This document shows positions 39,138 to 53,919 of a DNA stretch of 53,919 nucleotides, piece by piece. Position numbers and translations under genes: made by a program. Source of the DNA: a virus. Its lineage: Duplodnaviria > Caudoviricetes. The notes under the pieces were generated by a model. That model was not told the DNA's origin, ran no database searches, and saw only the letters and a list, made by a program, of their open reading frames with translations. The stretch lies in the IMG/VR virus record IMGVR_UViG_3300032285_000220, positions 1 to 53,919 of that record; one strand, 5' to 3'. Position 1 is the first letter of the stretch; each line of letters begins with the position of its first letter.

Positions 39138-39365
39138 TTACTTGTTAAGATTAACAATCAATTCTTTAATCTTTTGGTCAAGTTTTCTAGATGGTTTTGC
39201 TTTACCCGAAAACCAATCATACACCGTTTGCCTCGAAACGTTAAGCGCTTTCGCTACTTGACTAGCAGGGTATTTTAGTGATATGCAGACCGCACCTAAT
39301 AATGTCCCTGTAGTCTCTTTAGCTTTAGCATTAGCTTCGATTACTACTTGGGAGTAACCACGCAT
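39138..39365 (-). CDS. XRE/Cro-like HTH protein
   Basis: ASQVAKALNVSRQTVYDWFSGKAKP helix-turn-helix. Confidence 0.8.
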   Translation of the reverse strand: MRGYSQVVIEANAKAKETTGTLLGAVCISLKYPASQVAKALNVSRQTVYDWFSGKAKPSRKLDQKIKELIVNLNK

Positions 39366-39367
39366 GA

Positions 39368-40279
39368 TTACGCCCAATCTGATACTAGATCATCTAAACT
39401 TACATCACCTTGATCTGCTTTAGGTGCTGGTTTAGGTGGAGGCGGTGCCACAGGTTTTTCTGCTGCACGAACTGTTGGTTCAGGAATTTCATCAATCACT
39501 TCAAGTGGTTTAGGACGTTGAATAGGTTGTTGTTTCTTTTGTTCAAACTCTTCACCATCTTCATCTTTGTTAATGTTTACTGATAATGTAATAGCACGTT
39601 TAGCTTCTTCTGAAGTTGACTTCGTGGCACATACTCCATACTCTTCATCATTAAGAATACGAATAGCTTTGAAACCAATCTTAGTGCTTGATGAATCTTC
39701 ATCAAAAGATACGCGTGATACAACAGACATTAAGTTTTGACCATTAGCACGAACGTAATCTGTATATTCATGTAATGGTTTACAATCTTTTGTGCCATTA
39801 CCAAAGATAGATTGAGCAGGTAAAGTCATTTGATAAACATCACCATTCATATCATCAGCACGAACTACAGCAATACGTCTACTAAAGCGACATGCTTTTG
39901 TTCCATTAGCGCCAGAACCTTTAATGTTTTGTGGGCATGACAAGCATGATGTAGCTTGTGGTTCTTGAACTGTTGGGTCTGGTGCTTGACTATCAGATGT
40001 CCAACATGTTGGAGGTGGCATCTTTTCACCAGGCACATATGCTTTAGAGAAATACATTCTGTGAACGTGTGGTGATGCATTAACAATAACTACATCGAGT
40101 GCGTCTTGATTTGACTTCTCAACTTCTTTACCGTTAACCATTAATCTAAATTTACCACCACGTATAGAAATACGTTTAGCAGTCGTTGAACTACCTGTGA
40201 TGTTAGCTGTAAAGCCATCATCTCTACGTGAAGTTGTTGCTACTGCGGTGCTACCAAATACGTCTAATTCGTTACTCAT
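39368..40279 (-). CDS. Putative ssDNA-binding/replication protein
   Basis: RISIRGGKFR, PPTCWTSD, CLSCPQNIKGS...ACRFSRRIAV; Pro-rich linker and acidic/aromatic tail (DDLVSDWA); AGGAGG RBS. Confidence 0.55.
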   Translation of the reverse strand: MSNELDVFGSTAVATTSRRDDGFTANITGSSTTAKRISIRGGKFRLMVNGKEVEKSNQDALDVVIVNASPHVHRMYFSKAYVPGEKMPPPTCWTSDSQAPDPTVQEPQATSCLSCPQNIKGSGANGTKACRFSRRIAVVRADDMNGDVYQMTLPAQSIFGNGTKDCKPLHEYTDYVRANGQNLMSVVSRVSFDEDSSSTKIGFKAIRILNDEEYGVCATKSTSEEAKRAITLSVNINKDEDGEEFEQKKQQPIQRPKPLEVIDEIPEPTVRAAEKPVAPPPPKPAPKADQGDVSLDDLVSDWA

Positions 40280-40680
40280 ACTTCCTCCTTAGTTCTACTT
40301 TTAGTTATTCTTACTGTGTATTCACTTGTTGCTTGTAAACCTGGCGGTGCTTTGTCAGGATTCTGCTCTAAGTATTCTTTAATTGCTGATTGCACTAATC
40401 TTTTTTCAAAAAACTCAGGCAATTTATTTTCTAATATAAAGTCATACATACTAGGCCAATCGCTTGACCAATATCTAGTCTTTAATGTTCTTGATAGTGT
40501 TCCAACTTTAGTTTTCAAACTAGTTACGTTAAGTGTCCTACATGCTTCATTAAGTGCAAGATCAATCTTATCTTTTTGCACTTTAATATTTGTGATTTCA
40601 TTTTCTAACTCCTCAATCTTATCTCTCATGTTGACAGATGCCTGCATGAGTTTTTCTATCTTATTATCATCTAATTCCAT
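40276..40680 (-). CDS. Conserved phage replication-module protein
   Basis: AGGAG RBS before MELDD; coiled-coil N-terminus; DW..MYDFI.EN...FEKR...PPGL motif. Confidence 0.6.
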   Translation of the reverse strand: MELDDNKIEKLMQASVNMRDKIEELENEITNIKVQKDKIDLALNEACRTLNVTSLKTKVGTLSRTLKTRYWSSDWPSMYDFILENKLPEFFEKRLVQSAIKEYLEQNPDKAPPGLQATSEYTVRITKSRTKEEV

Positions 40681-40709
40681 ATTCTCTCCTTTCAAATCTT
40701 AAGGATAAC

Positions 40710-40737
40710 AGTATAACATACTTATTTACAATGTCAA
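40710..40737 (-). promoter_or_regulatory. Sigma70-type promoter
   Basis: On - strand TTGACA-16 nt-TATACT, with TG upstream of the -10. Confidence 0.7.
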
Positions 40738-41228
40738 CTTACTTTTCTTATTTCGTATAAATCTTTTCCATGGGTAGCTAATACCCATAGAGCAAAATTT
40801 ATGAGTTCTTTTGGGGTAGCACTACTTTTCATAGTATTAGCTTTGTTGCTTATTATGTGTATATTTCCCTGTATATAACCTTTAGTATTATCCATTCTGT
40901 CTATTGATGGTGAGTTAGTAGTAGGCCCTGTTTTACCTCCTTCTATACTTTCTTTTATAATAGGTATTCCTAATATAGGACAGACTAAAGGTATAACTAT
41001 ATCAGTAGGACTTATATCAAACTCAAGATTATTCTTTTTAGCTCTATGTCTAGTAGAATATATAATGGCTTTTTCGGGACTATTAGCTACTAACTTTCTT
41101 CTACTCGCTGCTTTTAATCCAGGGTGTTTTTTATGCCATGCATTTTGATAGGCATTATATTTAGCTCTATTTTTATCACGCCATTTTTTACAGTATTCTC
41201 TTTGTTCTTCTAATGATTTAAACCCCAT
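40734..41228 (-). CDS. HNH-like endonuclease
   Basis: CPILG...SPSIDRMDNTKGY..GNIHIISNKANTMK; GAGGAG RBS before MGFKS. Confidence 0.75.
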   Translation of the reverse strand: MGFKSLEEQREYCKKWRDKNRAKYNAYQNAWHKKHPGLKAASRRKLVANSPEKAIIYSTRHRAKKNNLEFDISPTDIVIPLVCPILGIPIIKESIEGGKTGPTTNSPSIDRMDNTKGYIQGNIHIISNKANTMKSSATPKELINFALWVLATHGKDLYEIRKVS

Positions 41229-42780
41229 CTGCAAACTCCTCTTTATACAGATCAACTAGTTTAGTATGCGTGTCGATTTTTCCCTGCAACATTTTATAAA
41301 TTTTTTGTTCAACGGGGGAACCTTGTAGGTGGACTACGGTCATCTTGTTTTTTTGTCCCGCCCTATCAACACGAGCGCAACATTGAATATATGTTTCAAC
41401 AGACATCACGGGTGACCAAAACACAACGACATTTGCTGCGTGGAGGGTAACGCCATGTGATGCAGCTTGAGGTTGGATCACCAATACTTGGGGGTCTTTC
41501 TTTTCTTGGAAATTTTTAAATATCTCTGAACGATTATTCATAGATACATCTCCATGTATTGCAGCGCATGTAATATGGTCTTTGTTTAACTCTCCCATAA
41601 TTTTTTCAATACTATGTCTGAATGGGCAAAAGATGAGAACTTTGTGGCTGGCTTCTTCTATGATTTCTTTAAGAGCAGTCATGCGGTTAGATATATCAAA
41701 CTCAATAATCTCTTGTGTATCTGAATAGATAGCACCTGCACTTACTTGTAGTAATTTAGTGAGCATAACCCCTGCATTGACCACAGTAATCTCTTCACCT
41801 GAAGCTTCCATATACATATCTTTTTTAAGCTTCTTATAATACTTATCTTGTTGTGGTGTGAGAGGAACTTCTCGAGTGGTATATAGAACGTCAGGTAAAT
41901 CCAAACATTCATCTTTGGTATATCGAATGGCAGGCTGTAATGTTTTAAATACAATATCCTGTGCATTAAATCTAGGCACCCAGGTGAACTGACTGACTTT
42001 TTGCATTACCATGTCCTTAAATGTTCCTGCATATTTCGGAACGGATGCGGGGTTCACAAGTCGAGCCAGTCCATATGCGTCAGCTGGTGATTGAGCAGCG
42101 GGTGTTCCTGTCATAAGCCATAACCATGTCTGAGGGGTAAGCACACGATTTAATGACTTCCAGCGACGTGTCGTGACAGTCTTGACATAGTTAGCCTCAT
42201 CGACAACTATTAAATCAAAACCGCCAGATTTAATTTCTTTCTCTACAATTTCTATGCCGTCATAGTTAATTATAACTACGTCTGTATTTTCTGCAAATAC
42301 TTTTTTTCTTTTCTCAGCACTACCATGAGCAATACCTACTGATCTATGCATAGCAGTTTTAAAGAAGTCTGTTTGCCATGCTGCTTGCATAATAGATAGA
42401 GGACATACTACAAGCATGCGTCTTATTTTACCTTGATTCATTAAGTAATCAGCTGCCCATATAACAGCAGATGTTTTACCCGTGCCTGCTTCACTTAAAC
42501 AATAAGCACGTCTATGTGCTGATAAGAATTCAGCTGTTGTTTTTTGATGATCAAACGGTTTATGAATACCTGGAAAGTTGTAGTCACGTGTTATAGGTGA
42601 CGGGGGGTTTTTAACTTTCATGTCTGATAATGTAAGCACTTCATCTAATCCCCAATTCACAGCAATTTGGGTTACACCATTATCATAAGATTTAAGAACC
42701 TTACTCTTAGGTATCTTATCTAAAATTAATTCAGGGCGTTTTGTATTTACAATCAACGCTTTATCTTTATATACTTCCAA
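41218..42780 (-). CDS. SNF2-family helicase
   Basis: EAGTGKT, VVDEA, MTGTP, Q..ARVDR.GQ motifs; TTG start with AGGAG RBS. Confidence 0.9.
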   Translation of the reverse strand: MEVYKDKALIVNTKRPELILDKIPKSKVLKSYDNGVTQIAVNWGLDEVLTLSDMKVKNPPSPITRDYNFPGIHKPFDHQKTTAEFLSAHRRAYCLSEAGTGKTSAVIWAADYLMNQGKIRRMLVVCPLSIMQAAWQTDFFKTAMHRSVGIAHGSAEKRKKVFAENTDVVIINYDGIEIVEKEIKSGGFDLIVVDEANYVKTVTTRRWKSLNRVLTPQTWLWLMTGTPAAQSPADAYGLARLVNPASVPKYAGTFKDMVMQKVSQFTWVPRFNAQDIVFKTLQPAIRYTKDECLDLPDVLYTTREVPLTPQQDKYYKKLKKDMYMEASGEEITVVNAGVMLTKLLQVSAGAIYSDTQEIIEFDISNRMTALKEIIEEASHKVLIFCPFRHSIEKIMGELNKDHITCAAIHGDVSMNNRSEIFKNFQEKKDPQVLVIQPQAASHGVTLHAANVVVFWSPVMSVETYIQCCARVDRAGQKNKMTVVHLQGSPVEQKIYKMLQGKIDTHTKLVDLYKEEFADGV

Positions 42781-42797
42781 TGCAATCTCCTAGTGAT

Positions 42798-42837
42798 AAA
42801 AATAGACGCGCCACCGAGAGAGGTAGTGACGCGCCTA
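42798..42837 (-). terminator. Terminator-like hairpin in the helicase leader
   Basis: - strand TAGGCGCGTCAC...GTGGCGCGTCTA (12 bp with G-U pairs) followed by TTTTT. Confidence 0.65.
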
Positions 42838-42920
42838 CACTGCTAACACACAAAGTTTTTTATTATCATGAGGTCTCTGTTGTTAGCTGACGTGGTTTTG
42901 CCGCACTCACGCCTAGCGGT
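42798..42920 (-). ncRNA. Candidate cis-regulatory structured RNA
   Basis: Hairpin 42901-42919 with a loop pseudoknot to 42889-42894; stem 42842-42848/42881-42887; terminator hairpin downstream. Confidence 0.4.
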
Positions 42921-42926
42921 GATCTG

Positions 42927-43244
42927 TTACGTTTTATTCTTCTTACCTTCTTTAGCTTCTTTAGCTTTAATCTTTTTACTTGGAACATTTCTCTTTAAAG
43001 AATGATCGCTGTTTCTATCGTATGAGTCATTAAGATTTGCATCTACAACACGCATATTACTTGGAACATTCTTACCACCTTTACTTAAAGGAACGATATG
43101 ATCTACTGCCATTCCATCACCCTTATGAACTTTACCAGCTTTTAGCATCATTCGTCTAGCTTTATTTCTAGCTACACGTTTAGCTATTTGGTCAGGTTGT
43201 GACTTATATTCATTCTCTTTTTTATAATCTCTTTTAGTTGCCAT
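42927..43244 (-). CDS. HNH endonuclease-like small basic protein
   Basis: VDHIVPLSKGGKN...NMRVV...N; start at MATKRDY coupled to the upstream stop. Confidence 0.75.
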   Translation of the reverse strand: MATKRDYKKENEYKSQPDQIAKRVARNKARRMMLKAGKVHKGDGMAVDHIVPLSKGGKNVPSNMRVVDANLNDSYDRNSDHSLKRNVPSKKIKAKEAKEGKKNKT

Positions 43245-43918
43245 TATTTTCCCCAATGTGAACATGATTGAACAGGGCAGAACTTCCTACATGCGAAGTT
43301 AGGGCTTGCATTGAAAACCCCTGTCTGATGGGCAGTGTCTATCCTATGCGTTATTTTACCCCATTCAGCAAACATTTCATCTACTTTGTCAACACTATAA
43401 TCTTCCTTTAATATCTCTTTACTTACCAAGAATACCAATCCAGACTTGACTTTTTGCATATCTGGGAAGTGTTTAAATATAGCTACACTAAACAACGATA
43501 GCTGTCTCGTATCGGCATACTGACTTGATTTGCCTGTTTTATAATCGATCAAGGTAGCTAACTTAGTCTCAGGGTTGATAACAAGTAAGTCAACAACACC
43601 ACGCCACCATACATTCGGTGCAAAGAAATCACAGGGTTGTAAGTCTTTAGTTAAGCCTAGCTTATACTCACAATATTTATCACCTGGAATTGCTATTAGC
43701 TTATCAAGCGTTGGCTTAAACATATCAAACTTCTCAGGCAGTGGAGTTGCGTTCTTAACGTATAACTCACAAGCTTTGTGAACTTCGTTGCCATAAAGGA
43801 AATGTTCTGTATTCGGGTCTTGCTTAATATCTTTAGCTACATACAGGTGATAATATTGCTTAGGACATTTCTCAAATGTAGTAGCACTTGAGTAAGACCA
43901 CGTTTTAAGTTCAGCCAT
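43244..43918 (-). CDS. PD-(D/E)XK (RecB/Cas4-like) exonuclease
   Basis: WSYS...FEKCP; G..VH; RGVVDL...IDYKTG; QL.LF; C-terminal C..CP...C Fe-S-type cysteines. Confidence 0.85.
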   Translation of the reverse strand: MAELKTWSYSSATTFEKCPKQYYHLYVAKDIKQDPNTEHFLYGNEVHKACELYVKNATPLPEKFDMFKPTLDKLIAIPGDKYCEYKLGLTKDLQPCDFFAPNVWWRGVVDLLVINPETKLATLIDYKTGKSSQYADTRQLSLFSVAIFKHFPDMQKVKSGLVFLVSKEILKEDYSVDKVDEMFAEWGKITHRIDTAHQTGVFNASPNFACRKFCPVQSCSHWGK

Positions 43919-44093
43919 TTGTTTTCCTATGTAATTCTTTCATGATCTTTGCACGTTTCTTGCCTGTTGGTTCTGTCTTAGCAAGGGCTTCTTCTAACTG
44001 TTTGATTGTGTATGCTTTGTATTTAGGTCTATCATTATGGGTAAGCATAGGTTTATTATGCCGTCTACTTTTGTGTATCTGTTGTGTCGCCAT
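43911..44093 (-). CDS. Hypothetical basic protein
   Basis: 60-aa ORF overlapping both neighbours in the operon. Confidence 0.55.
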   Translation of the reverse strand: MATQQIHKSRRHNKPMLTHNDRPKYKAYTIKQLEEALAKTEPTGKKRAKIMKELHRKTNG

Positions 44094-44301
44094 CTTCTAC
44101 CCTTTCTACTTCACCTGTTGATTTATTAAGTTCGTATGTGTAGTGTAATCCATCGTTACCATTCTGACCTACTATATCAATACGAGATTCTTCTTTCTTT
44201 TTCTTACCAAAAATACGTTCAAAGTTTTCTTCAAACTGTTTACTGTTAGGTTTAGATTGTAACCAATCACCTGTGACATCATTTTGTGCAGTCTTTTTCA
44301 T
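44065..44301 (-). CDS. Hypothetical protein
   Basis: NDVTGD.LQSK...FEENFERIF and RIDIVGQNGNDGLHY motifs; TAATG coupling to polA. Confidence 0.6.
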   Translation of the reverse strand: MKKTAQNDVTGDWLQSKPNSKQFEENFERIFGKKKKEESRIDIVGQNGNDGLHYTYELNKSTGEVERVEDGDTTDTQK

Positions 44302-46127
44302 TATTTAGCATCCATGTAGTTATCACCAACACCTACTTCACAACCAAGTGGTAAGTCACTACACCAATTAGGTGCCGTAGTCATACACTTCTCAACGTAG
44401 GCTTTACATTCATCTACTTCGTTATCTTTACACAACATCACAAGTTCGTCATGGACTGTCATTACGACAGGATACCTTTTCGCTACTTGGATTAATTGTT
44501 CTGCAATTATATCACGAGCAAGGGATTGTATACAACGTTGAAATGTTTTAGATGGGTGTATATATTCAGGGATTAAAGTTCTTCCCATTAACTTATCATA
44601 TGCCCATGACTCACCTGTATCTGTCTTTAGTTTCCTTAAGTTAGGTAAGCCTAACAACATACCATTAGGTTTCATCATGCCTTCATAAGGGACACTAGAT
44701 ACTATCCCACCATTACCCATTGTATAGTGTTGACCTGCTCTTACTGACTCAAGCATAGTTCCTGCATCTTGCCATGCCTCAACCAATTCGGGATTAGCTT
44801 TACGATATGCATACACGATGTTCTTAACTTCTTGTATATCTTTTTCAACTCCACCTTGTTTTAAGATTGAGTGCATCTTGTTAGCACCTACACCATAAAT
44901 ACCTGATAAGTTTACTACCTTAAATATAAAGCGTAAGTCTTTAGATACTTCATCATAAGGTGTTCCTGTAATGTCTGCGGCAGATTGTTTATATAAATCA
45001 ATACCATCTTTAATCTGTTGTATCTTGCCATGTGATTGTGCAAACCAATAGGCTAACCTTAATTCAATATTACTAAGGTCTGAGGCTACTAATTTATAAC
45101 CTTTTGGCGCACATATAGCTCGTCTTAGCTCTGATGTTCTTGGTAAGTTTTGTAAGTTAATACCATCTACACCACTCCATCTATGAGATACCACTGCACC
45201 TGCATACTTCAATGGCACAGGTAGCTTACCTCTGTTGGCTATTTGAATAAAGTTCTCTGTTCTTGTTTCTTCAATTGTCGACTTGTTGCCGATACGCGCA
45301 GCCGCCAAAGCTTGAACGTATGGATTATCATGTTCCAATAGTTCTTTAAATCCTTCATCTGTTTTGGCAAACGCATAAGCTTCCTTTCCTGTAGTAGCAC
45401 TTATCTTTGTGGGGGGAGTAACCCCTTGTTCGATGAGGAGTTCTGCGAACTTAGGATTACTCATTAATAACTCTTTGTCTACTGAGACTGATGCTAGTAG
45501 CTTTTCTTTAGCTTCTTTAACTTCGTGGAGGTGACGTAGTAATAAACCTTTATTTAGTTCTAGCTTAGGTTCTGTAAACATACGGATAGTTAAATCAATA
45601 AGCTTCATCTCAGGTGCAGTAAACTTATCTTTTAACTCGGTGAATAATTCGTAGGTAAGTTCTACGTCATTAATACAATACTGACCATACTTAGCTAAGT
45701 CATTATGGGTAAAGTCTAATCGTCTTTTACCTAAGGCATCTAAAACTTCTGTGCCTTTCTCACCTAACTGATATAGTTGTGATAGGTTAGCTAATGATAC
45801 TGACTCTTTTAAACCATGTAGGATTTGAGCCATACTCATAGTATCGAATAAACCTAATGGGTGTATATCAAATATCCATGATAGGATTGCCGCATCAAAC
45901 CTCATGTTATGTCCTAACACAAAGTGTTCATGCATATTATATGAGTCTAGGAAAGCTTTGGTCTCAGCGTGTGTTCCTGTAAACCATTTAGTCACACCCT
46001 TATCTTTGACTGCTACACCTATAACTTCAAACTTTTCATCTCGTATATATTGCTCGGTAGTAAACTTCTTTAACCCATACTCTTTATCGTAGTATGTTTC
46101 AAAGTCAATCGTGATTAAGTTAGGCAT
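44301..46127 (-). CDS. polA: DNA polymerase, family A (3'-5' exonuclease plus polymerase)
   Basis: Exo I DFETYY, HNMRFD, YCINDV; NLQNLP; motif A DLSNIELR; motif B R...KVVNLSGIYG; motif C VHDE. Start at MPNLITID with AAGGA RBS. Confidence 0.9.
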   Translation of the reverse strand: MPNLITIDFETYYDKEYGLKKFTTEQYIRDEKFEVIGVAVKDKGVTKWFTGTHAETKAFLDSYNMHEHFVLGHNMRFDAAILSWIFDIHPLGLFDTMSMAQILHGLKESVSLANLSQLYQLGEKGTEVLDALGKRRLDFTHNDLAKYGQYCINDVELTYELFTELKDKFTAPEMKLIDLTIRMFTEPKLELNKGLLLRHLHEVKEAKEKLLASVSVDKELLMSNPKFAELLIEQGVTPPTKISATTGKEAYAFAKTDEGFKELLEHDNPYVQALAAARIGNKSTIEETRTENFIQIANRGKLPVPLKYAGAVVSHRWSGVDGINLQNLPRTSELRRAICAPKGYKLVASDLSNIELRLAYWFAQSHGKIQQIKDGIDLYKQSAADITGTPYDEVSKDLRFIFKVVNLSGIYGVGANKMHSILKQGGVEKDIQEVKNIVYAYRKANPELVEAWQDAGTMLESVRAGQHYTMGNGGIVSSVPYEGMMKPNGMLLGLPNLRKLKTDTGESWAYDKLMGRTLIPEYIHPSKTFQRCIQSLARDIIAEQLIQVAKRYPVVMTVHDELVMLCKDNEVDECKAYVEKCMTTAPNWCSDLPLGCEVGVGDNYMDAK

Positions 46128-46299
46128 TAGTTTCCTTTTCCTTTTCAAGTAAGCCTGCACCAAAAGCCATACCTAATTCATACCCCATTCTCCATGCTAT
46201 ATACATTTTCTCATCATCATATTTTAAAGATGCATAAGTAGGGCTTTGTAAAAAGAATCTCTCATACCATAATGTAAATGCTTCTTTATTTTCTATCAT
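46120..46299 (-). CDS. Hypothetical protein, 59 aa (not in ORF track)
   Basis: Translated by hand: MIENKEAFTLWYERFFLQSPTYASLKYDDEKMYIAWRMGYELGMAFGAGLLEKEKETNA. Fills the gap with overlaps on both sides. Confidence 0.6.
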   Translation of the reverse strand: MIENKEAFTLWYERFFLQSPTYASLKYDDEKMYIAWRMGYELGMAFGAGLLEKEKETNA

Positions 46300-46490
46300 T
46301 TCCCCCTCACTCTAGCTTTAACTGCATGCTCATAGATAGCCGCGATGTCAATTATCTCTTCTGATTTTAATCCTTTGGGTCTGATTTTAATAACACCATG
46401 ATGTATGGTTACGATAAGGTTGCGTTCACCACGATCAAAAGTCGTAGCAGACGTCTCCCTAATAGTGGGCTTCGTTGACTTTGTTGCCAT
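46296..46490 (-). CDS. Hypothetical protein
   Basis: AAGGAG RBS; 64 aa. Confidence 0.6.
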   Translation of the reverse strand: MATKSTKPTIRETSATTFDRGERNLIVTIHHGVIKIRPKGLKSEEIIDIAAIYEHAVKARVRGK

Positions 46491-46501
46491 ATCTCTCTCC
46501 T

Positions 46502-46699
46502 TTATTTGCGTCTATTGACGTGATAGTCCCAATCGTCAGCACAATCTTTGTCGCACCAACGTCTTGAGTCATTAAGTTTCGAGCCACAATTTAAACAGTG
46601 ACCAGTCCCTTCTAAATACTTAATACCTTCCATTTCCTTACGGCGAATGGCGTCTTCAAGTTCTATTCTATCCTGCGTTTTATCTGCATCATCTGACAT
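46502..46699 (-). CDS. TraR/DksA-like C4 Zn-finger protein
   Basis: N-terminus MSDDAD resembles F TraR MSDEAD; CLNC...WCDKDC. Confidence 0.6.
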   Translation of the reverse strand: MSDDADKTQDRIELEDAIRRKEMEGIKYLEGTGHCLNCGSKLNDSRRWCDKDCADDWDYHVNRRK

Positions 46700-46838
46700 A
46701 TTTAAGCTTTTGTAATACCAATCGAATTATGAATAAGTCTATCACTAAAGAAAAGACATAAGGTGCGTCTTCCTCTAGAAATTTAAGTTCTAAGCCTACC
46801 ATAACTCCTGATATTAACGCAAGCTGAAATATCCACAT
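46689..46838 (-). CDS. Small hydrophobic protein, 49 aa (not in ORF track)
   Basis: Translated by hand: MWIFQLALISGVMVGLELKFLEEDAPYVFSLVIDLFIIRLVLQKLKYVR. TAATG coupling. Confidence 0.55.
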   Translation of the reverse strand: MWIFQLALISGVMVGLELKFLEEDAPYVFSLVIDLFIIRLVLQKLKYVR

Positions 46839-47149
46839 TATTTAGATTTCACAGTCTGTTTCTCTACAAAAGATACTAACTCATTAACATACCATTGAGC
46901 CTTTTTCAAGTCCATTAATGTTGACTCTTTTAATCCTGCTCTTGACAAATACTTAATAGCAGTAAGACGTAAGTGTCCCGCAAACTCTTCAGGTGTTGAC
47001 TTAGCCTCCATATAGTCTATTGTTTCGATACCCCCGTGTGTGTAGTGTGGTGGATTATTAACCATATCTTTCATGTCTTCTCCTGCTCCTGTAAATTTGA
47101 CTGCATTTGAACCTGTGTAACTAGCTAAAATTGTTTTCATTCTTGTCAT
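46838..47149 (-). CDS. DUF3310/SaV-like protein
   Basis: DMVNNPPHYTHGGIETIDY...AIKYLSRAG.K....DLKKAQWY. Confidence 0.8.
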   Translation of the reverse strand: MTRMKTILASYTGSNAVKFTGAGEDMKDMVNNPPHYTHGGIETIDYMEAKSTPEEFAGHLRLTAIKYLSRAGLKESTLMDLKKAQWYVNELVSFVEKQTVKSK

Positions 47150-47442
47150 ACTAAATCCAAATTCCTTTCTACTATTTCTAAATCGTTTTCGTTGACTACC
47201 CAAGCATGCCCACTATTGTTTCGTATAGCTTCAAGGTTTCTATGTTGCAATTCAGTAGGGCGATTGTTTCCTGCCTTACATTCTATAGCTACAAATTTAC
47301 CTCTAACACACGCAACAATATCAGGCACACCTATACTTGTGTAAGCACCTGCAATAGGAAAGAAGTAATAAACATTTCTTTCTTTTAACATCTTAACTAC
47401 TTGTTGCTTAACCCACTTTTCTTTTACAGGTGCTTTTTTCAT
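47146..47442 (-). CDS. VRR-NUC domain nuclease (possible Holliday junction resolvase)
   Basis: E..V...GVPDIV....G.FVAIECKA....PTELQ. Confidence 0.85.
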   Translation of the reverse strand: MKKAPVKEKWVKQQVVKMLKERNVYYFFPIAGAYTSIGVPDIVACVRGKFVAIECKAGNNRPTELQHRNLEAIRNNSGHAWVVNENDLEIVERNLDLV

Positions 47443-47747
47443 CTAGGTATCTCCATGATTAATTGCATGGCTCTTGCTTTCTTATTGTGGTATTCCATAT
47501 TCTTTTTAGTAAGAATTCTAAAGTCCATCTTAGAGTTCATGAGTGCTTGTATATTATTCATAGCCTCTTTATACTCTAGATACACTTCGTCTGTATCATC
47601 TTCTGCAATTACATAGAATTGACCATCTCTAATGCCAACATTCTTTATATATTTACCTACATCTACGAGTTTAAGGATAGCCATTTTCTCCTTATCCTCT
47701 TTAGATATATCGGGTGAGTTCTCATGCATCGCATGATATACTTTCAT
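47439..47747 (-). CDS. Hypothetical protein
   Basis: GGAG RBS; ATGA overlaps. Confidence 0.6.
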   Translation of the reverse strand: MKVYHAMHENSPDISKEDKEKMAILKLVDVGKYIKNVGIRDGQFYVIAEDDTDEVYLEYKEAMNNIQALMNSKMDFRILTKKNMEYHNKKARAMQLIMEIPR

Positions 47748-48586
47748 ATGGTCTCCATAATTTGATTTACTTTGTTTAATACTACTGCTCTAGCACCTTG
47801 ACTTTCTCTCAAATCATCAGCTGTTACCCCTACTAGCAATCGTTCTAATTCTTGTCTTGCATTCTCTAGTTTAGGGTCGTTTGTTACATTAAGCTTAGTT
47901 AATAGATTTGTCAACTCTAATGCATTATCTACTAGACTATCTCTAAATATTTTCTTCTCCTCACCACCTAACCTATCAATCATATGTTCTAGGGTGTTAT
48001 GTAACCTAGACCATGCGTCTGACATAGCCATCTCAACACGACCTTCGTATGCTTTCTGATACTCTTGTTGCATCTCATTACGAATATCATCTGCGATGTC
48101 AACACGGAAGTCATTTGTTTCAGGCACAGGCATAATAGTATATCTCAAGTTAAACTTGTTTGCAATCTTATCAGCATCGGGATACTCTGTTCTATCAAAT
48201 AACTTACCTAATTTGAAAGCCATACCTTGAATGATATTAGGATACTCTTGTATAAACGTATTGATACGTGATTTAAACTCCGCCTCATACACACCAAGCT
48301 GATGTTTGTAATCAAAGAAGTTAGTCATAGGTAATAACCTTGTGCCTGTATCTGACCAAGGCAAAGTTTGCCTACCATGCCACTCTCGTATCTCACTCGC
48401 CAACTTAGTAATCTTGTCTAATTGGTCTGAACCTGCAAGGATATGTTTGTTATAGTTACCTGCCTTGATGGTTGTGTTTTTGTTTATATCAATTTCTTTG
48501 GACACATTTCTATCTAGTTTCCTAGCTGTCCATACTGATATGTTTAAGTCTATTAAGACTGCACTGCTTGCTATACTAATACTCAT
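47744..48586 (-). CDS. Conserved phage protein (DUF3150-like)
   Basis: AAGGAG RBS before MSISIASSAVLIDLNISVWTARKLD; TLPWSD.G.RLLP; LNVTNDP.L. Typically linked to MoxR/vWA genes. Confidence 0.55.
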   Translation of the reverse strand: MSISIASSAVLIDLNISVWTARKLDRNVSKEIDINKNTTIKAGNYNKHILAGSDQLDKITKLASEIREWHGRQTLPWSDTGTRLLPMTNFFDYKHQLGVYEAEFKSRINTFIQEYPNIIQGMAFKLGKLFDRTEYPDADKIANKFNLRYTIMPVPETNDFRVDIADDIRNEMQQEYQKAYEGRVEMAMSDAWSRLHNTLEHMIDRLGGEEKKIFRDSLVDNALELTNLLTKLNVTNDPKLENARQELERLLVGVTADDLRESQGARAVVLNKVNQIMETI

Positions 48587-48596
48587 GTTGTTCTCC

Positions 48597-49124
48597 TTAA
48601 TAACTGTCTGCAAAATCTACAAAATCAACTTCCATTACACCTAATGTTCTATTTTGTAATTTAGTTAAAAACTCATCAAGTTCACCACTAATAAAGTTCT
48701 GTTGAACCATGACCTCTTTTAGTTGTTTTACATAATGCTTGTCATAAGCGTATGTTCTGAGTTCCCCTGTGGGTTCTTGCTTTGTTGCTTTTTCAATATC
48801 TGCTTCAATATGTTTTTGGTTATACGCATCGGCGTTAATTTTTGCTAACGACGCAACGCCTAATAATCTTTCAAAGAAAGGATGACCGTTGGGAATGTCG
48901 CTCCAGTTTGTCCACCAATTACCATATCTAAAGTGAGGCATGGGGTATTTCTTTAACAACCATTTAGCTACAATAGTTGTAGCTGAGTGGGTTCTTGGTA
49001 TGTTGCCATTACGTAAATATTTAATAATGTTTTTGATTTGCCTATCACTAAACAAATTAAAATCCATTTCTAATTTTACTGATTTTGTGTATTGTTGTAT
49101 CTCTTGTCTTAAGTATGTTGCCAC
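48597..49124 (-). CDS. Hypothetical protein (probable GTG start at 49124)
   Basis: GAGGAG lies 7 nt upstream of GTG; the listed ATG overlaps the RBS. Confidence 0.6.
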   Translation of the reverse strand: MATYLRQEIQQYTKSVKLEMDFNLFSDRQIKNIIKYLRNGNIPRTHSATTIVAKWLLKKYPMPHFRYGNWWTNWSDIPNGHPFFERLLGVASLAKINADAYNQKHIEADIEKATKQEPTGELRTYAYDKHYVKQLKEVMVQQNFISGELDEFLTKLQNRTLGVMEVDFVDFADSY

Positions 49125-49145
49125 TTTATTTCTCCTCATTTAAAT

Positions 49146-49177
49146 GCGACAAGCGTATAACAATATACGATTGTCGC
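49146..49177. repeat. 32-nt palindromic element, copy A
   Basis: GCGACA-AGC-GTATA-ACAA-TATAC-GAT-TGTCGC. Confidence 0.85.
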
Positions 49178-49184
49178 TTGGTTA

Positions 49185-50342
49185 TTAATCAATATGAATT
49201 GTCTTACCATGTGGTGATGTGATATGTTTGGTTGTGATAGCCCATAAGGTAGGATAATCCCAATTACCACCAAAGTCATTCTCTACATAACCATCTGTCA
49301 ATATAATGATAGCTTCGGGTTGAATGCGTTTATCTTTGATATAATCATTGACGCACCCAACTGTCGTGCCACCACCCCCTGCAGGTTTTGTTGTTTGAAC
49401 CAATGAGTGATAATCACCTTGATTGTATGTCTCATGTCCTGCAACACAGGTATCCCAATACAACAACTCTATACTTGATGGGGATACATCATCACATATA
49501 GCTACAACTTCTGTTAAGAACTCGTTGAGTTCCTTGTCACCAATAGAACCTGATGTGTCTATACCTACAACAATCTGTCCTATTGATTCACCAATCATGC
49601 TAGGCATATAGATGTCATGCCCAATGAAACGCTTGTGTGGTCGTTTCCATGATGTCTTATCTTTGTTCTTACATGTAGCCGTTACAAAGTCACGCAACTG
49701 CTCACGCCAATTAACCTTAGGTTCAAGTATTTCGTTGACACTTCGGTTCTTATTACCTTGCATCTTACCTCGTATGATTTCACCTTGTCGTAAGGCTTGG
49801 TCTATCTGCTTGGCTACTTCTTTCTTTTCCTCGTCAGATAAACTATCAGCACCTTCCCAATCATGTGAGTCATGTCCTTCACCTTGACCTTGACCACCAT
49901 TCTTTTCAGCATCTTTCATAATCTCATCAAAGATTTGTTTAGTAGTCATACCTTTATACTTCAAGTCAAAGAGAGCCGAGTCGGGTCGCTTGGTAACTTC
50001 ACCTTGTTCATCAGCTTCATGTATCGCATAGTTCACAACATAGTCAGCCGCCATGTTAGCTACCATAGGATTAATCTTCCATAGTTTCTTCCATAGGTTC
50101 ATATGTTGATATGCCTTGTGTAATGCCTCATGCAACACGACAAAGTTTAACTCCTTATCATCTAGTGTTTTGATGAAGTCTGTATTGTAGATAACATCAC
50201 GACCATTGGTGCAAGCCGTAGGTATATCCTCGTTAAACATCACCTTGCCCACCGATAACACACCTGCAAACATACAGAATTGTTTGCTACGCATTATCGC
50301 TATGTGGGACTTCGTGACTCTTTGTTCACTTGTTAGTGCCAT
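49185..50342 (-). CDS. Metallopeptidase-vWA protein (DUF2201-like)
   Basis: TACTNG...FVVLHEALH (HExxH), N.AADY..N; MIDAS DTSGS, GGGT, ILTDG. Confidence 0.85.
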   Translation of the reverse strand: MALTSEQRVTKSHIAIMRSKQFCMFAGVLSVGKVMFNEDIPTACTNGRDVIYNTDFIKTLDDKELNFVVLHEALHKAYQHMNLWKKLWKINPMVANMAADYVVNYAIHEADEQGEVTKRPDSALFDLKYKGMTTKQIFDEIMKDAEKNGGQGQGEGHDSHDWEGADSLSDEEKKEVAKQIDQALRQGEIIRGKMQGNKNRSVNEILEPKVNWREQLRDFVTATCKNKDKTSWKRPHKRFIGHDIYMPSMIGESIGQIVVGIDTSGSIGDKELNEFLTEVVAICDDVSPSSIELLYWDTCVAGHETYNQGDYHSLVQTTKPAGGGGTTVGCVNDYIKDKRIQPEAIIILTDGYVENDFGGNWDYPTLWAITTKHITSPHGKTIHID

Positions 50343-50350
50343 ATATCCTC

Positions 50351-51397
50351 CTAGAAGTATTGGTTATTCTTAACTGCCCAATCAATGAATGACTTGTTCT
50401 GAGCCGCGACTGCCTTACGAGATGATGCCATGATGTTTACTGCAAACAAGGCTTGTATCTCCATAGGTAATCGTTGTAAGTATGTAAGCCACGCATCCAT
50501 ATGTTGCTCTGTGATTGTCATTAGTTCTCGCATGACTAGAATTACACGAGCCGCAGGGTCGCTTGGTAAGTTAGCTTTCTCAGGTTCTTTGTAAATACTT
50601 TCTTTAGTCGGTAAGCCATCAGCTAGACTAAAGTATGCTGACATATCACGAGCCGCTGACTCACCCAATGTGCCTGTGAGTGCAACCATAGTGGTATCTT
50701 CACCTAGTGTTGTTCTGTTCTTAACGATATGTGATGCCTTCTCTAATGAACGAGGGGATACGAAAGCCTCTTGTTGTTTGCGTGGATTGTAGATATACAT
50801 GTTCTCTTTCTGTGCTTCATCTGTATAACACGCTAGTGCATGAGGGAATTGTTTAACCCATGCTACAACCTCTGGTGCTATGTTGTTATCAATAGCCCAA
50901 CTAATCCATTCATCATCATTCGGATTACGCACAATGACTGCCGTCAATCTATTCTTGGCATGTGCTTTCATGGTATCGCCAACACCATCTGTTGTTAGAT
51001 TACCTGTTGAATACACGATAGAGTCGGGGTGAAACTTAACTGCACCTAATCGTCTCTCTAACATGACAGGCAATAACATATTCTTAACAGGCTCACTAGC
51101 TTTAGTTATCTCGTCTAGCATAATGATGACAGGCTTGTTATCATGGATAGCAAAGCGTTCATTCGGATAGAATGTTGTTGTCTTGCTCTCATGGTTCATA
51201 GCAGGCATAGCTAAGTCGCCTAAGTCTAAGTCTGCACAATCTATATACACAGGTGTGTGTTCTGGAAATCGTTTAGCTAACGACTTCAATATAGATGATT
51301 TACCAATGCCAGGTTGACCTTTGAGGTGAACCGTAACATCTTTACCTACTGTTGCAATTAATTCCTCTGCTTGTTTCAAACTTATTTCTTGTTGCAT
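50351..51397 (-). CDS. MoxR-like AAA+ ATPase
   Basis: Walker A GQPGIGKS, Walker B IIMLDE, TGN sensor, NR and SPRS motifs; adjacent to a vWA gene. Confidence 0.85.
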   Translation of the reverse strand: MQQEISLKQAEELIATVGKDVTVHLKGQPGIGKSSILKSLAKRFPEHTPVYIDCADLDLGDLAMPAMNHESKTTTFYPNERFAIHDNKPVIIMLDEITKASEPVKNMLLPVMLERRLGAVKFHPDSIVYSTGNLTTDGVGDTMKAHAKNRLTAVIVRNPNDDEWISWAIDNNIAPEVVAWVKQFPHALACYTDEAQKENMYIYNPRKQQEAFVSPRSLEKASHIVKNRTTLGEDTTMVALTGTLGESAARDMSAYFSLADGLPTKESIYKEPEKANLPSDPAARVILVMRELMTITEQHMDAWLTYLQRLPMEIQALFAVNIMASSRKAVAAQNKSFIDWAVKNNQYF

Positions 51398-51419
51398 GAT
51401 ACTCTCTCCTTAATGTTAA

Positions 51420-51451
51420 GCGACATTGGTATATTTCTATACACTTGTCGC
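51420..51451. repeat. 32-nt palindromic element, copy B
   Basis: GCGACA-TTG-GTATA-TTTC-TATAC-ACT-TGTCGC; overlaps the stop of 51437-52309. Confidence 0.75.
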
Positions 51452-52309
51452 AGGTTGAACTTCTACTAAAACTTGTGGGTTCTCTAACTTAATATTTTTA
51501 TCTAACCATCTTTTAATCATACCTATGTTGCAACGATAGCTATATCTACTATTACCTGTTGCACTAGCCCCAAGCCATATACTGCGTGAGCATTGTCTTA
51601 ACGCATAGTAATAGGATAGATATGTTTTATCTTCATCGGCAAATAAGTTAAGCATGCCTTCAATACCTTTAAATTGAGTTAATTCATTTACTTGTTTACT
51701 CAATGCTTCATCATGCTCTACACCTTCGTTGTTACTTAACTTCAACATGGTGTCTGCATACTTTAAGAACTTCTTATATGGTAGTCGCAACTCACGCATC
51801 TGCCTTGCATCAAACCTATACTTCACAGGTTTCTCAAACTGCTCGGGATACATTGGCTTGTTGTCATATGTTATGGCATACCAATCCCTTGCATTGATGT
51901 GATAGTCGTTTCTATCTAAACCAACAATACATTCAATCTGATTGTTCTTAACTAATGGACTTCGTGTAAATGGTGCAGGCACATATTTCTTATGGTCAAA
52001 CTCGTATATATACACACCACCTATATAGCTTAAAAAGTATTGCGTTGACCTTGATGGATAAGCACCTAGTGTTATCTCTTTGTGTGTAGGATAAAACCTT
52101 ACCAAGTCTGTGTCATAATAACCTGCGACATATACTTCAATGCCGTCTTGTATTTCTTGACGCAACCATTTCTCTTTCTCATATCTATCACCTAATCTAC
52201 GCACAGATTGGTTCTCACCTCTTACTGCTGTTCTGCTTTCAAATATATCTTTAGCATGTTTATAATCACTAATGCGTGGCATGTTATAAACATTAATATG
52301 AAATCCCAT
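51437..52309 (-). CDS. Hypothetical early protein
   Basis: 290-aa ORF with GGAG RBS; no recognisable motif. Confidence 0.7.
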   Translation of the reverse strand: MGFHINVYNMPRISDYKHAKDIFESRTAVRGENQSVRRLGDRYEKEKWLRQEIQDGIEVYVAGYYDTDLVRFYPTHKEITLGAYPSRSTQYFLSYIGGVYIYEFDHKKYVPAPFTRSPLVKNNQIECIVGLDRNDYHINARDWYAITYDNKPMYPEQFEKPVKYRFDARQMRELRLPYKKFLKYADTMLKLSNNEGVEHDEALSKQVNELTQFKGIEGMLNLFADEDKTYLSYYYALRQCSRSIWLGASATGNSRYSYRCNIGMIKRWLDKNIKLENPQVLVEVQPATSV

Positions 52310-52310
52310 G

Positions 52311-52652
52311 TTATTCTCCCTCTTTCATGTCATAACCTCTGTTCATCCAACTTACAAACTTCATGTTCTCAAGCCAATCTTGTAGGCTAGGTATCCACCC
52401 ACCACAATCCTCTTTAACATGTTGTTCACCTATTAATCGTGTTGGAACTTCACGACCATCACTATTCACAATGAATAATCCGAATTGTCTTTCACATTCA
52501 AAGATACCTTGTGCATGATGTCGTATGGCTCTGTGTCTTGCGTCAGCAAAACATTCTTTGGTTGCATCAAACCAATCGTGTATTGGTTGATAGTCAGCTT
52601 CAACACCACCCCATTTCTTTACAGATGTTTTAGAATGATAATGTGTATTCAT
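52311..52652 (-). CDS. DUF6915-like His-rich protein
   Basis: H..HSKTSVKKWGG...DY..IHDWFD.TK....D.RHRA.RHH..GIFECE..FG...EQHV.ED. Confidence 0.65.
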   Translation of the reverse strand: MNTHYHSKTSVKKWGGVEADYQPIHDWFDATKECFADARHRAIRHHAQGIFECERQFGLFIVNSDGREVPTRLIGEQHVKEDCGGWIPSLQDWLENMKFVSWMNRGYDMKEGE

Positions 52653-53080
52653 TATTCTTCCTCCTCATCATTCAAATCATATTCATAATCTTCAGTCGTT
52701 CTGTGGTTGATACCCACATTTAACTTAATACTTGGAGGGGTATCTCTAAAGTCAATCGTTAGATTACCTTGACCTCCGTCATTGTTATACCAATCAAGCC
52801 CTGTGTTATCTAATGCACGACTGCATAAATCTTCTAATACATCTGCTAGCTTGGTTGGTTTTGACTCTGCTTGTTGACCACCATAAGTTAGTGATGTCCA
52901 CGCAATCATATCGTCTGGTATTTCAATATAATTGCCATCATTACCAGAGATATAAACACCATCAACTTGTCCATCATCACCACCCCCTTGAAACTCTACA
53001 ACTACTAGCTTTGCACCTAGCAGATTTAACTGCGTCAGTAGCGTTGTTTTTTCTTGCTCGTTTGCAAATATATTTTTCAC
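52652..53080 (-). CDS. DUF6878-like acidic protein (probable GTG start at 53080)
   Basis: V.F.GGGDDGQV...DWYNNDGGQG.L.ID motif; GAGGAG 7 nt upstream of GTG. Confidence 0.6.
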   Translation of the reverse strand: MKNIFANEQEKTTLLTQLNLLGAKLVVVEFQGGGDDGQVDGVYISGNDGNYIEIPDDMIAWTSLTYGGQQAESKPTKLADVLEDLCSRALDNTGLDWYNNDGGQGNLTIDFRDTPPSIKLNVGINHRTTEDYEYDLNDEEEE

Positions 53081-53105
53081 GATAGTTCTCCTCATTAAAA
53101 AATAA

Positions 53106-53137
53106 ACGACAAGAGTATAAAGTTATACGATTGTCGC
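53106..53137. repeat. 32-nt palindromic element, copy C
   Basis: ACGACA-AGA-GTATA-AAGT-TATAC-GAT-TGTCGC, followed by TTGGTT as in copy A. Confidence 0.85.
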
Positions 53138-53174
53138 TTGGTTGATAAAACACTTCTTCATTTCCTACAAACAT

Positions 53175-53203
53175 ATTATAGCATGATTACTTTACATTGT
53201 CAA
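53175..53203 (-). promoter_or_regulatory. Consensus sigma70 promoter (early)
   Basis: - strand TTGACA-17 nt-TATAAT with TGn extension. Confidence 0.85.
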
Positions 53204-53221
53204 GTCATTGTCCAAAATTTT

Positions 53222-53422
53222 TTACTTACTTTTATGTGATGAATTAAGCCCTTTCAATAGTTCTAAATCAGTCACAACAATATAGTTTGACTTCGGCATA
53301 GGCACAATACAATGTTTATAATTGAGTGCATGTTTCTCACCACAACTTAAACAAGTCTTATAACCTAACTGATACCTAGCGTCAGCTATATCATCACCAC
53401 AATCAACGCATGAATAACTCAT
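53222..53422 (-). CDS. DksA/TraR-type C4 Zn-finger protein
   Basis: CVDCGDDIADAR...TCLSC; start MSYSC by ATGA overlap. Confidence 0.65.
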   Translation of the reverse strand: MSYSCVDCGDDIADARYQLGYKTCLSCGEKHALNYKHCIVPMPKSNYIVVTDLELLKGLNSSHKSK

Positions 53423-53682
53423 GGCAACTCTTTCCAAAATAAAAACGCAACATACGCAAACATCATGGCGTAAATTGTCCATGTCATGTATGTTTCTTCG
53501 CTACGGTCATTTTCCGACTGTGTCGTATATGTCCCGCCCCAAGCGTCTCTTGCTGAACGAGGTGTAGGTAGTTCAAACCTGTCTGGTCTAAAGAATACAT
53601 AACCTTGTTTTGCGTTACGCGCAAATTTTCTGTGTTGCCATGTCTCAAATTTGCGTATTGATTTCTTTTGTTCTTTGTTCAT
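53419..53682 (-). CDS. Hypothetical protein with C-terminal TM helix
   Basis: AGGAG RBS before MNKEQ; WTIYAMMFAYVAFLFW. Confidence 0.6.
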   Translation of the reverse strand: MNKEQKKSIRKFETWQHRKFARNAKQGYVFFRPDRFELPTPRSARDAWGGTYTTQSENDRSEETYMTWTIYAMMFAYVAFLFWKELP

Positions 53683-53860
53683 GTTCTCTCCTGTTAAGTT
53701 TAATAAGTCCTTGTTGTTCAAGGTATTTCAATCTGTGCCAATTAGTAATCAAAGCCACACATAGTTCTTTCTGTGTGATAGACGGATTACTCCGTAGTAT
53801 TTCGTTAACTTTGTGGGCTACCTTCCAATCATCTAACTTGGTATACATTAGAATAAACAT
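53645..53860 (-). CDS. Small winged-HTH-like protein
   Basis: ILRSNPSITQKELC...RLKYLEQQGLIKL pattern; start uncertain. Confidence 0.5.
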   Translation of the reverse strand: MFILMYTKLDDWKVAHKVNEILRSNPSITQKELCVALITNWHRLKYLEQQGLIKLNRREHEQRTKEINTQI

Positions 53861-53919
53861 TCCCCCACTAATGCATATACATCTTCCTTAACTTCTTTAA
53901 TTACTTCTAGCTTGATGAC

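Follow-up and report, generated by a model that had tools for sequence, protein, structure and literature searches.

Type-specific palindromes and a co-varying first early protein in the early region of an uncultured aquatic phage and its relatives

The virus record IMGVR_UViG_3300032285_000220 (Duplodnaviria; Caudoviricetes), analyzed here over all 53,919 nucleotides and referred to as the window, is estimated to be 85% complete. Three hairpin-forming palindromes in its early region are the visible part of what looks like a fast-diversifying specificity system of protein and site in widespread aquatic phages. The proposed protein partner is named EP200 here; it is the product of the first early gene, 190–250 amino acids in length, and we infer from the patterns described below that it binds the palindromes, that it does so in the DNA rather than the RNA form, and in which direction binding acts. 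The palindromes are read as double-stranded DNA operator or roadblock sites for EP200, with a probability of about 0.42.

The palindrome of the window is 32 nucleotides in length and follows the consensus GCGACA-N3-GTATA-N4-TATAC-N3-TGTCGC, with arms GCGACA and GTATA. Copy A (49146-49177), copy B (51420-51451), and copy C (53106-53137) all lie on the minus strand and, with their AACC flanks, extend over 49146..49183, 51420..51456, and 53106..53143. Copies A and B match the consensus without mismatch, and copy C has one. A pattern search of both strands of the whole window, allowing up to three mismatches, returned these three matches; dinucleotide-preserving shuffles returned a mean of 0.00, and 0 of 100 reached three. 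A covariance model built from relatives, run over the 53,919 bases with filters off, found the same three sites and no other, with minus-strand scores of 35.5, 35.2, and 29.4 bits. The next match is unrelated and scores 12.8 bits (E = 3.4).

On the minus strand, AACC stands before each copy (49183-49180, 51456-51453, and 53143-53140), and a GAGGAG or AAGGAG Shine-Dalgarno sequence follows 8–12 nucleotides past it. Copy A is located in the 60-nucleotide gap that separates the stop codon of the DUF2201/VWA gene (49187-49185) from a gene for a 175-amino-acid protein, whose Shine-Dalgarno GAGGAG (49137-49132) and GTG start at 49124 occupy 49122..49137. Copy B overlaps the last codons of the open reading frame (ORF) at 51437-52309 and is followed by the N4 gp24-like ATPase gene (Shine-Dalgarno AAGGAG 51411-51406, ATG start 51397; together 51395..51411). 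Copy C is in the 5’ leader of the DUF6878 gene (Shine-Dalgarno GAGGAG 53093-53088, GTG start 53080; together 53078..53093), at approximately +29 to +62 from a consensus promoter and about 36 nucleotides past its -10. This promoter (53175..53203, minus strand) is a sigma-70 promoter of the form TTGACA-17-TATAAT with TG, matching 12 of 12 consensus positions. The 3’ outer arm of copy C reads TGTCGT, which gives a G-U pair on the minus strand, and this copy is followed by TTTATTTTTT. The center of copy B is GAAA. An earlier sequence-only reading of the window had reported the three copies, the AACC and ribosome-binding sites around them with the three gene starts, and the overlap of copy B with a coding end; all of these were confirmed.

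Folded as RNA, copies A, B, and C reach -17.6, -12.6, and -13.2 kcal/mol, with z-scores against shuffles of -5.9, -3.6, and -6.2. Rfam 15 gave no match at gathering score on either strand of the window, and a megablast of window 48000-53919 against the phage collection gave no match. RNA runs containing window 48500-53919 were looked for, and none was listed. A generic two-helix hairpin scan of the window produced 95 and 93 candidates on the two strands and was set aside as too noisy. Three is a lower bound for the number of copies in this phage, because the record stops near copy C (about 780 nucleotides upstream of it) and the genome G006, the nearest relative of the same type with more sequence, has five copies, two of which lie beyond the point matching the window end.

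Relatives were collected by a search with the ATPase, which gave 62 viral-contig loci at 62–98% identity and later 80 metagenome loci. In most relatives the ATPase start is closely preceded by an element built in the same way, with other arms that are altered on both sides. Over the 62 loci the covariance model gave 124 matches, of which 109 are on the gene strand; the remaining 15, on the opposite strand, are the same kind of palindromic site and were mostly scored on the gene strand too. In an alignment fitted to the model, which leans toward structure, paired cells make up 94.8% compared with 67.8% in shuffles, changes on both sides occur in 9 of 9 pairs, and the covariation score is 0.650 compared with 0.162. 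A pattern search of the genome and its relatives with covariation analysis, proposed with the sequence-only reading, has returned both-side changes at every pair and no further site in the window.

A strand-symmetric, context-blind scan followed by a search with each genome’s consensus gave 83 unique copies in 14 genomes. This set is without G008, a repeat of G001, and without G015, for which the family finder returned nothing. The 14 genomes hold 3–10 copies each, located in leaders, promoters, and gaps between cistrons, and complete or long relatives hold 4–10, all within an early region of 10–14 kb. The four arm blocks are common to all copies of one genome, while the spacers of 2–4 nucleotides and the center of 4–6 nucleotides vary. 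The fixed arms and spacing with variable N3 and N4 described from the window recur within each of the 14 genomes; spacing is constant within a type, and the sole exception seen is an extra copy in G009 with its inner arms one base further apart. Each half of a site is composed of an outer block of 4–7 bp, a free spacer of 2–4 bp, and an inner block of 4–6 bp, placed around a free center of 4–6 bp. The stems are 9–14 bp only, and element length depends on type, from 28 to 34 bp, even and odd.

Between genomes the arms differ on both sides, and at least 15 arm types can be distinguished. Differences in arm type occur among phages with ATPases that are 84–99% identical. The GCGACA/GTATA type is shared by the window, G006, and G007. 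Other examples are GTGACA/TTATA, GTTCYG/GCAC, GACA/CTTACC, GGAA/GCACG, GAAC/TGGCT, GAAC/TGGGAT, CAC/TTCAC, GRGACA/GTATCA, GTGACA/TGCGTA, TGTGAA/CTCAC, GAACA/CTTACT, and GTCAC/TCAT.

The restriction to the early region was followed over whole records. G004 (66,066 bp) has 10 sites at 2068-13821, and in G001 (66,018 bp) six sites are found, at 849 and at 57042-65046, a region contiguous across the record ends; the reversed-pattern control gave 0 in both. Type-specific patterns were used for these two records, in which the first covariance model, which misses some types, gave 0 matches. In three records where the general covariance model works, all matches fall inside the early region. Isolated half-sites with at most one mismatch number 25 outside full palindromes compared with 10 in the reversed control. 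This is no clear enrichment, and the excess was discounted because most of the matches come from low-information patterns.

Twenty-five ortholog clusters, each present in at least 10 of 24 genomes, were compared with the palindrome types. EP200 is the sole cluster of the 25 that separates by type. Its identity is at least 57% within types (6 pairs) and at most 45% across types (184 pairs), whereas cross-type identity in the other 24 clusters reaches 82–100%. It is also the most divergent of the shared early proteins. The gene of 175–190 amino acids after copy A and the gene of about 290 amino acids before copy B do not track type.

Two natural recombinants show how type is distributed in otherwise similar early regions. 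G012 (L106, reverse) and G006 (L100, reverse) share a 98–99% identical block that begins at the ribosome-binding site following copy C and ends with the stop codon ahead of copy A. The block encloses a copy B of the GCGACA type, the type of the donor, while all other copies in G012 are of the TGTGAA type, and the EP200 of G012 is 25% identical to that of G006. In G009 and G010, several early proteins are 97–100% identical; at an orthologous site the flanks, the outer arm, and an AAAA center are kept, and the inner arm is GTATCA in one and TGCGTA in the other. Judged from this correlative association, the palindromes and EP200 look like an early regulatory module specific to each type. Relatives retain the element with changes in both arms, and it tracks one early protein of the phage, and for these reasons the proposal of a dedicated regulatory system for the early operon, made from the window alone, is supported.

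The G012 block also bears on another suggestion made from the window, that the palindromes are recombination sites delimiting gene cassettes. Its breakpoints do lie beside copies C and A. Sites of different types, however, share no homology through which they could recombine. Miniature mobile palindromes are disfavored too: the flanks are without target-site duplication (AACC compared with TAAC or none), and the loops differ between copies, which is against copy-and-paste. Recombination or mobility signals, grouped with the hairpin promoters discussed below, form the least probable of the explanations considered and are very unlikely.

The EP200 gene of the window’s own phage lies just beyond the window end. 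In 15 of 15 relatives with enough upstream sequence, the gene was found in a monocistronic unit that opens the early region, and it is also present at 9 further metagenome loci. The unit consists of (in order) a G-rich stretch, the consensus promoter TTGACAttgtc-17-TATAAT, a generic 5’ stem-loop, the genome’s own palindrome, a ribosome-binding site, the EP200 gene, and a strong terminator. The consensus promoter and the terminator are always present. Of 16 records inspected, 15 genomes and L087, 12 have an own-type palindrome in the EP200 leader. The G003 palindrome instead overlaps the -35 of the EP200 promoter. G004 has one copy 12 nucleotides upstream of the -35 and another within codons 7–17 of the gene. 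An upstream copy is also found in L186, and in L190 both of the G004 positions are occupied, although the inner arms are different. No type copy was seen in the EP200 leaders of G014 and G009.

The coding-region sites are at L085:2211-2239 (G004) and L190:3008-3036, in both cases at EP200 codons 7–17. The encoded peptide is E-L-L-G-I-S-A-K-S-S in G004 and E-Q-M-G-L-T-P-K-S-S in L190, and the inner arms shift in step with each genome’s type.

Further features of the unit and its surroundings were noted in relatives. The G-tract-rich stretch (for example GGGGTATAGGGGGGTAGTAGGGGTT) just upstream of the EP200 promoter occurs in nearly all genomes and is unusual for DNA of about 37% G+C. The second, generic stem-loop is at the extreme 5’ end of the leader (ATGAATTGA...TCAATTCAT and variants), 25–35 nucleotides past the promoter -10, as on the minus strands of L090 and L088. 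In examples read by eye, changes in its arms keep pairing and the wobbles are sense-strand G-U; it is probably a 5’-terminal mRNA stem-loop. A conserved AAGTTAACTTCGTGGCTACAT motif follows the EP200 terminator and is itself followed by a non-coding stretch of about 700 nucleotides with short direct repeats (L080:3905-4660 in G002 and L085:3000-3900 in G004). The G004 stretch contains TACCATCTGTATA approximately 4 times and GTAATTTT approximately 6 times. Possible roles of this stretch are a replication origin and a bank of regulatory sites.

EP200 is a basic protein. Its predicted fold is all-alpha, with four long helices and, after them, helices rich in lysine and glutamate, at a predicted local distance difference test score (pLDDT) of 84. 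A symmetric homodimer is predicted with a score of 0.77, compared with 0.00 for the best of three controls. Runs of the dimer prediction show at least 86% contact agreement with a partner pLDDT of at least 84, and the mark used was attained by 20 of 30 proteins whose solved form is a pair of one chain and by 1 of 23 whose solved form is a single chain. A sequence profile search of the PDB gave nothing significant for EP200, the best match being an HU-like chain (E = 0.28). The protein atlas places it among unnamed viral clusters; the nearest named family is DUF3102 at 0.83, which is a lead only. Single EP200 queries for further relatives returned 2, 4, and 1 loci only.

In the mechanism preferred here, an EP200 dimer would bind the palindromes as double-stranded DNA. 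Sites at EP200’s own promoter or leader would give autoregulation. A second set of sites, at approximately +30 to +65 past other strong host-type early promoters, and a third set, in the short gaps between cistrons, would work as operators, or as roadblocks in the path of host RNA polymerase, and so shut down or meter early transcription.

The sequence-only reading had offered both DNA operators and sites for a phage RNA-binding protein. Both options survive, and the DNA operator is ranked ahead. Under the RNA option, hairpins in the early mRNAs, each made of an outer helix, an internal loop, an inner helix, and a loop, would be bound by EP200 or by another type-specific phage protein, in the manner of lambda N/nut or T4 RegA. 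Binding would repress or enhance translation of the next cistron, or modify termination at copies with U-runs, and EP200 would be autoregulated through its own leader hairpin. This account is less probable than the DNA operator but has to be taken as its serious competitor. Every one of the 83 copies can be folded into the expected hairpin of two helices (type means -5.9 to -14 kcal/mol), and the z-scores of the window copies (-3.6 to -6.2) agree with an RNA structure. Compensatory changes also occur among the copies of one genome: the outer pair in G005 is G-C, C-G, or A-U across copies, and site 4331 of G004 reads CGGCT/AGCCG.

The arm cells of the 83 copies comprise 696 Watson-Crick pairs, 20 sense-strand G-U pairs, 6 A-C pairs, and 48 other mismatches. 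The excess of sense G-U over A-C, 20 compared with 6, speaks for RNA and against the DNA operator. Several of the G-U cells are one ancestral change repeated in orthologous or duplicated copies, and once such copies are merged the excess shrinks to about 15 compared with 7–9 (the author’s estimate); it could also stem from strand-biased C-to-T change. The original argument for RNA over DNA had relied on the G-U pair of copy C and the GAAA tetraloop of copy B. The G-U pair exists but generalizes poorly, as outright mismatches that break pairing make up 48 of the 74 non-Watson-Crick arm cells, and 3 of 5 copies of the GTTCYG type have C-A at one position of the arm. The tetraloop is also present but carries no weight, since the center and spacers vary freely in relatives. 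A first, crude count of G-U against A-C (18 compared with 19) was confounded by a conserved flanking C...A and was replaced by the count over arm positions.

The spacers are complementary at 61 of 195 positions (0.31), compared with 0.32 expected; they are fully closed in 14 of 78 copies and show no closure in 37 of 78. Because this complementarity matches the expectation from base composition, it is immaterial whether the internal loop is open or closed, and the neutral spacer pairing argues against RNA. Shuffling left and right spacers within genomes had suggested that they avoid pairing (129 compared with 152.8 +/- 7.0). This was rejected as a copy-lineage artefact, because across all copies the complementarity equals the composition expectation. 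Also against RNA is that the arm sequence is conserved and the loops are not, the reverse of most protein-hairpin recognition. The constant spacing inside a type, with the one G009 copy as exception, likewise speaks for DNA.

Position and symmetry favor DNA as well. Well-kept copies at or upstream of the EP200 promoter are found in four lineages (G003, G004, L186, and L190). In G004, L186, and L190 they lie 10–15 nucleotides upstream of the -35, and the G003 copy overlaps the -35; there is no evident sense transcript at these places. The predicted two-fold EP200 dimer fits an inverted repeat in duplex DNA, not the two arms of one hairpin, and on a single hairpin it would be without a symmetric target.

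Several observations weigh against a DNA operator and are set out here together. The context of the sites is directional: AACC is found upstream of 35 of 83 copies and its mirror GGTT downstream of 1 of 83, and a T-run (at least 5 T in 7 nucleotides) is found downstream of 19 of 83 copies and the mirror A-run upstream of 1 of 83. These counts tell against the reading because a symmetric DNA site does not need direction. A Shine-Dalgarno sequence and start codon are located within 45 nucleotides after 66 of the 83 copies, and in 46 of these 66 the Shine-Dalgarno sequence is 6–12 nucleotides past the arm (hand count). A homologous dimer must accommodate the type-dependent length of 28–34 bp, and also the extra G009 copy with its wider inner spacing. 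EP200 has no recognizable DNA-binding domain, and a bundle of long helices such as it forms differs from a classical helix-turn-helix. Two EP200 members were without a Pfam match above cut-off, 15 members were without a PHROGs match below E = 0.001, and Foldseek against the PDB and BFVD gave no match at E <= 0.001. Lastly, the association with EP200 comes from 6 same-type pairs only, and the EP200 gene is physically linked to one palindrome copy. The searches also mean that the EP200 family is undescribed in Pfam, PHROGs, the PDB, BFVD, and the protein atlas, a statement about these databases and not about the literature.

Many of the same observations would suit an RNA target: the directional AACC and T-run context, the placement of the Shine-Dalgarno sequence, the variation of element length with type, and a basic, all-alpha protein with no helix-turn-helix detected. 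The sense-strand G-U pairs of the generic 5’ stem-loop add that RNA structure matters in the EP200 leader. The layout of promoter, hairpin, first gene, and terminator mirrors pL-nutL-N-tL1 of lambda. In lambda, N is encoded by the first early gene, with a cognate hairpin in the leader and a terminator after the gene, and a further site is located in the other early transcript. N and nut are highly divergent within the lambda family and specific to phage type. In layout, this is the closest analogue at the RNA level. Recognition of boxB is centered on the loop of a 15-nucleotide hairpin, with one site per operon, and N is a small, disordered, arginine-rich peptide. Unlike boxB, the palindromes have free loops and conserved arms, number 4–10 sites, and in part lie upstream of the promoter. 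A conserved GNRA-like loop after boxA was looked for among the copies and not found; the only linear flank is the AACC of 35 of 83 copies.

T4 RegA, the other RNA-level comparison, is an early protein that acts on several early cistrons and on its own. Its sites are unstructured and located at start codons, unlike the palindromes here, and we know of no type diversification in RegA.

Host RNase III-type processing, or protective 5’ hairpins that remain after cleavage, would require no specificity factor from the phage. The T7 early region carries RNase III hairpins with an internal loop between cistrons, before the next ribosome-binding site, and the stable RNA folds and similar placement of the palindromes recall it. 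The T7 sites are read by a host enzyme through their shape, whereas the arm sequence here is type-specific and tracks EP200. A shape-reading enzyme leaves unexplained why all copies of one genome have the same arms, whereas genomes with ATPases that are 90–99% identical have arms that differ on both sides; independent drift of each copy would be expected, and instead the arms switch together. The exclusive co-variation with EP200 and the copies upstream of the promoter are also left without explanation, the stems are only 9–14 bp, and no Rfam family was matched. Processing by RNase III, which the sequence-only reading had listed first among its options, is improbable.

The copies could instead be weak intrinsic terminators or attenuators, possibly modulated by a factor, that grade transcription of the early operon. 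The downstream T-runs and the sequence after copy C are in keeping with such a role. The T-run is missing in 64 of the 83 copies, however, including copies A and B of the window, and the three copies were absent from the terminator-like hairpins returned by a scan of 36000-53919. AT-rich stems with mismatches also depart from the G+C-rich stem expected of a terminator, and termination alone leaves type-specific arms unexplained. Termination is improbable, by a slight degree less so than RNase III processing. The terminator scan also returned a 14-pair hairpin at 48960-48990 (plus strand), opposite the gene for the 175-amino-acid protein, which is unrelated to the palindrome family.

Hairpin promoters of the N4 type share the grade given above to recombination signals. 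The promoters of the N4 virion RNA polymerase are three hairpins with a stem of 5–7 bp and a 3-nucleotide loop, and the giant virion polymerase is needed for their use. The window resembles N4 in having three same-orientation hairpin repeats at the start of the early region, the phage shares genes like N4 gp24/gp25, and the ATPase after copy B is N4 gp24-like. Unlike in N4, consensus sigma-70 promoters precede EP200 and copy C, and the elements are 28–34 nucleotides in length with two helices, not a short hairpin. No phage RNA polymerase was detected; PF00940 (T7-type RNA polymerase) was unmatched in 5 records, and the control genomes were unmatched too; a very diverged polymerase may still be encoded. 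The 1908-amino-acid virion protein of the window falls in the group of LPD38 polyvalent proteins. Overall, support is poor for RNase III sites, for hairpin promoters of the N4 type, and for recombination sites. T4 also has promoter-stem-loop cassettes, proposed to be exchangeable gene cassettes. As analogues, the T7, RegA, T4 cassette, and N4 systems each share one feature with the palindromes and fail on type specificity or on a required enzyme.

The plus strand of the window encodes head, tail-fiber, and ejection genes together with the LPD38 polyvalent protein. The latter (30315-36041, plus strand) has its LPD38 domain at residues 1598–1765 and matches an ‘internal virion protein’ chain weakly (E = 0.002); no polymerase signature was seen. 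The early and replication genes are on the minus strand and encode DUF6878, DUF6915, a 290-amino-acid protein, the AAA ATPase, the DUF2201/VWA protein, a DUF3150-like protein, PolA, a helicase, and a DUF927 primase-helicase. Only two strong minus-strand promoters, both of the sigma-70 type, were found between 36 and 54 kb, the one at 53203-53175 that precedes copy C and one at 40710-40737. The second is of the form TTGACA-16-TATACT with TG and has no family palindrome nearby. The AAA ATPase (50351-51397, minus strand) and the DUF2201 metallopeptidase/VWA protein (49185-50342, minus strand) are homologues of the N4 gp24 region. The pair shows approximately 25% identity to 439 phage records, and the window is otherwise without recognizable N4 hallmarks. 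The nearest cultured relatives of the ATPase are in N4-like phages, at about 25% identity, where it is annotated as ‘N4 gp24-like’.

The phage group is probably lytic and is widespread in freshwater and marine metagenomes. A search of 185,579 prokaryote species genomes, one for each species, found no relative, save one 27% partial match. Because relatives are missing from these genomes, nothing points to a prophage state or lysogeny, although no systematic integrase search was made.

For the DNA operator reading, the closest analogue in logic is the repressor and stoperator system of Cluster A mycobacteriophages, to be taken as an analogue and not as a system of which the palindromes are a member. 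The repressor of L5, Bxb1, and TipsytheTRex is reported to have more than 20 13-mer sites, located in promoters (operators) and short intergenic spaces (stoperators), where it is proposed to block transcription both at initiation and during elongation; from one subcluster to another, both the repressors and their motifs have diverged (PMC9283540, PMC6550527). Set beside these accounts, the palindromes are alike in having multiple motif copies in promoters and short operon gaps (83 copies in 14 genomes) and in a motif that diverges with the phage’s candidate binding protein, EP200, a correlative relation. They differ in architecture. Stoperators are asymmetric 13-mers bound by a monomer with a helix-turn-helix and a second domain, and the sites here are four-block inverted repeats of 28–34 bp. 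Stoperators are found genome-wide in temperate phages, and the palindromes are confined to the 10–14 kb early region. The EP200 protein is an orphan unrelated to the L5 gp71-type repressor, a predicted dimer with no family or structural match.

A broader interpretation is speculative and, on balance, doubtful: EP200 might represent a new nucleic-acid-binding fold within a private, fast-diversifying code of regulator and site in lytic aquatic podophages, a form of heteroimmunity without lysogeny. EP200 would recognize the 4–10 four-block palindromes spread over the early operon. After a resident phage had expressed its early genes, its EP200 would then silence the early operon of a later arrival of the same type, and relatives would escape by switching protein and sites together. 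The presence of at least 15 specificities among phages with neighboring genes that are 90–99% identical would point to diversifying selection that arises from conflict between co-infecting relatives.

If EP200 does act on the palindromes as a repressor on DNA, the logic of a repressor with dispersed sites would extend from temperate mycobacteriophages to lytic, uncultured, and widespread phages, in which the protein is unrelated and the sites are built differently. The orphan EP200 family would gain a function. There would be at least 15 orthogonal pairs of protein and site, with the site variants already mapped, that may be usable as orthogonal regulators. Type-specific arms and EP200, set against near-identical flanking genes, make these phages a clean system for the study of specificity switches in mosaic phage populations, and one that also suits the question of whether lytic phages exclude superinfectors of the same type.

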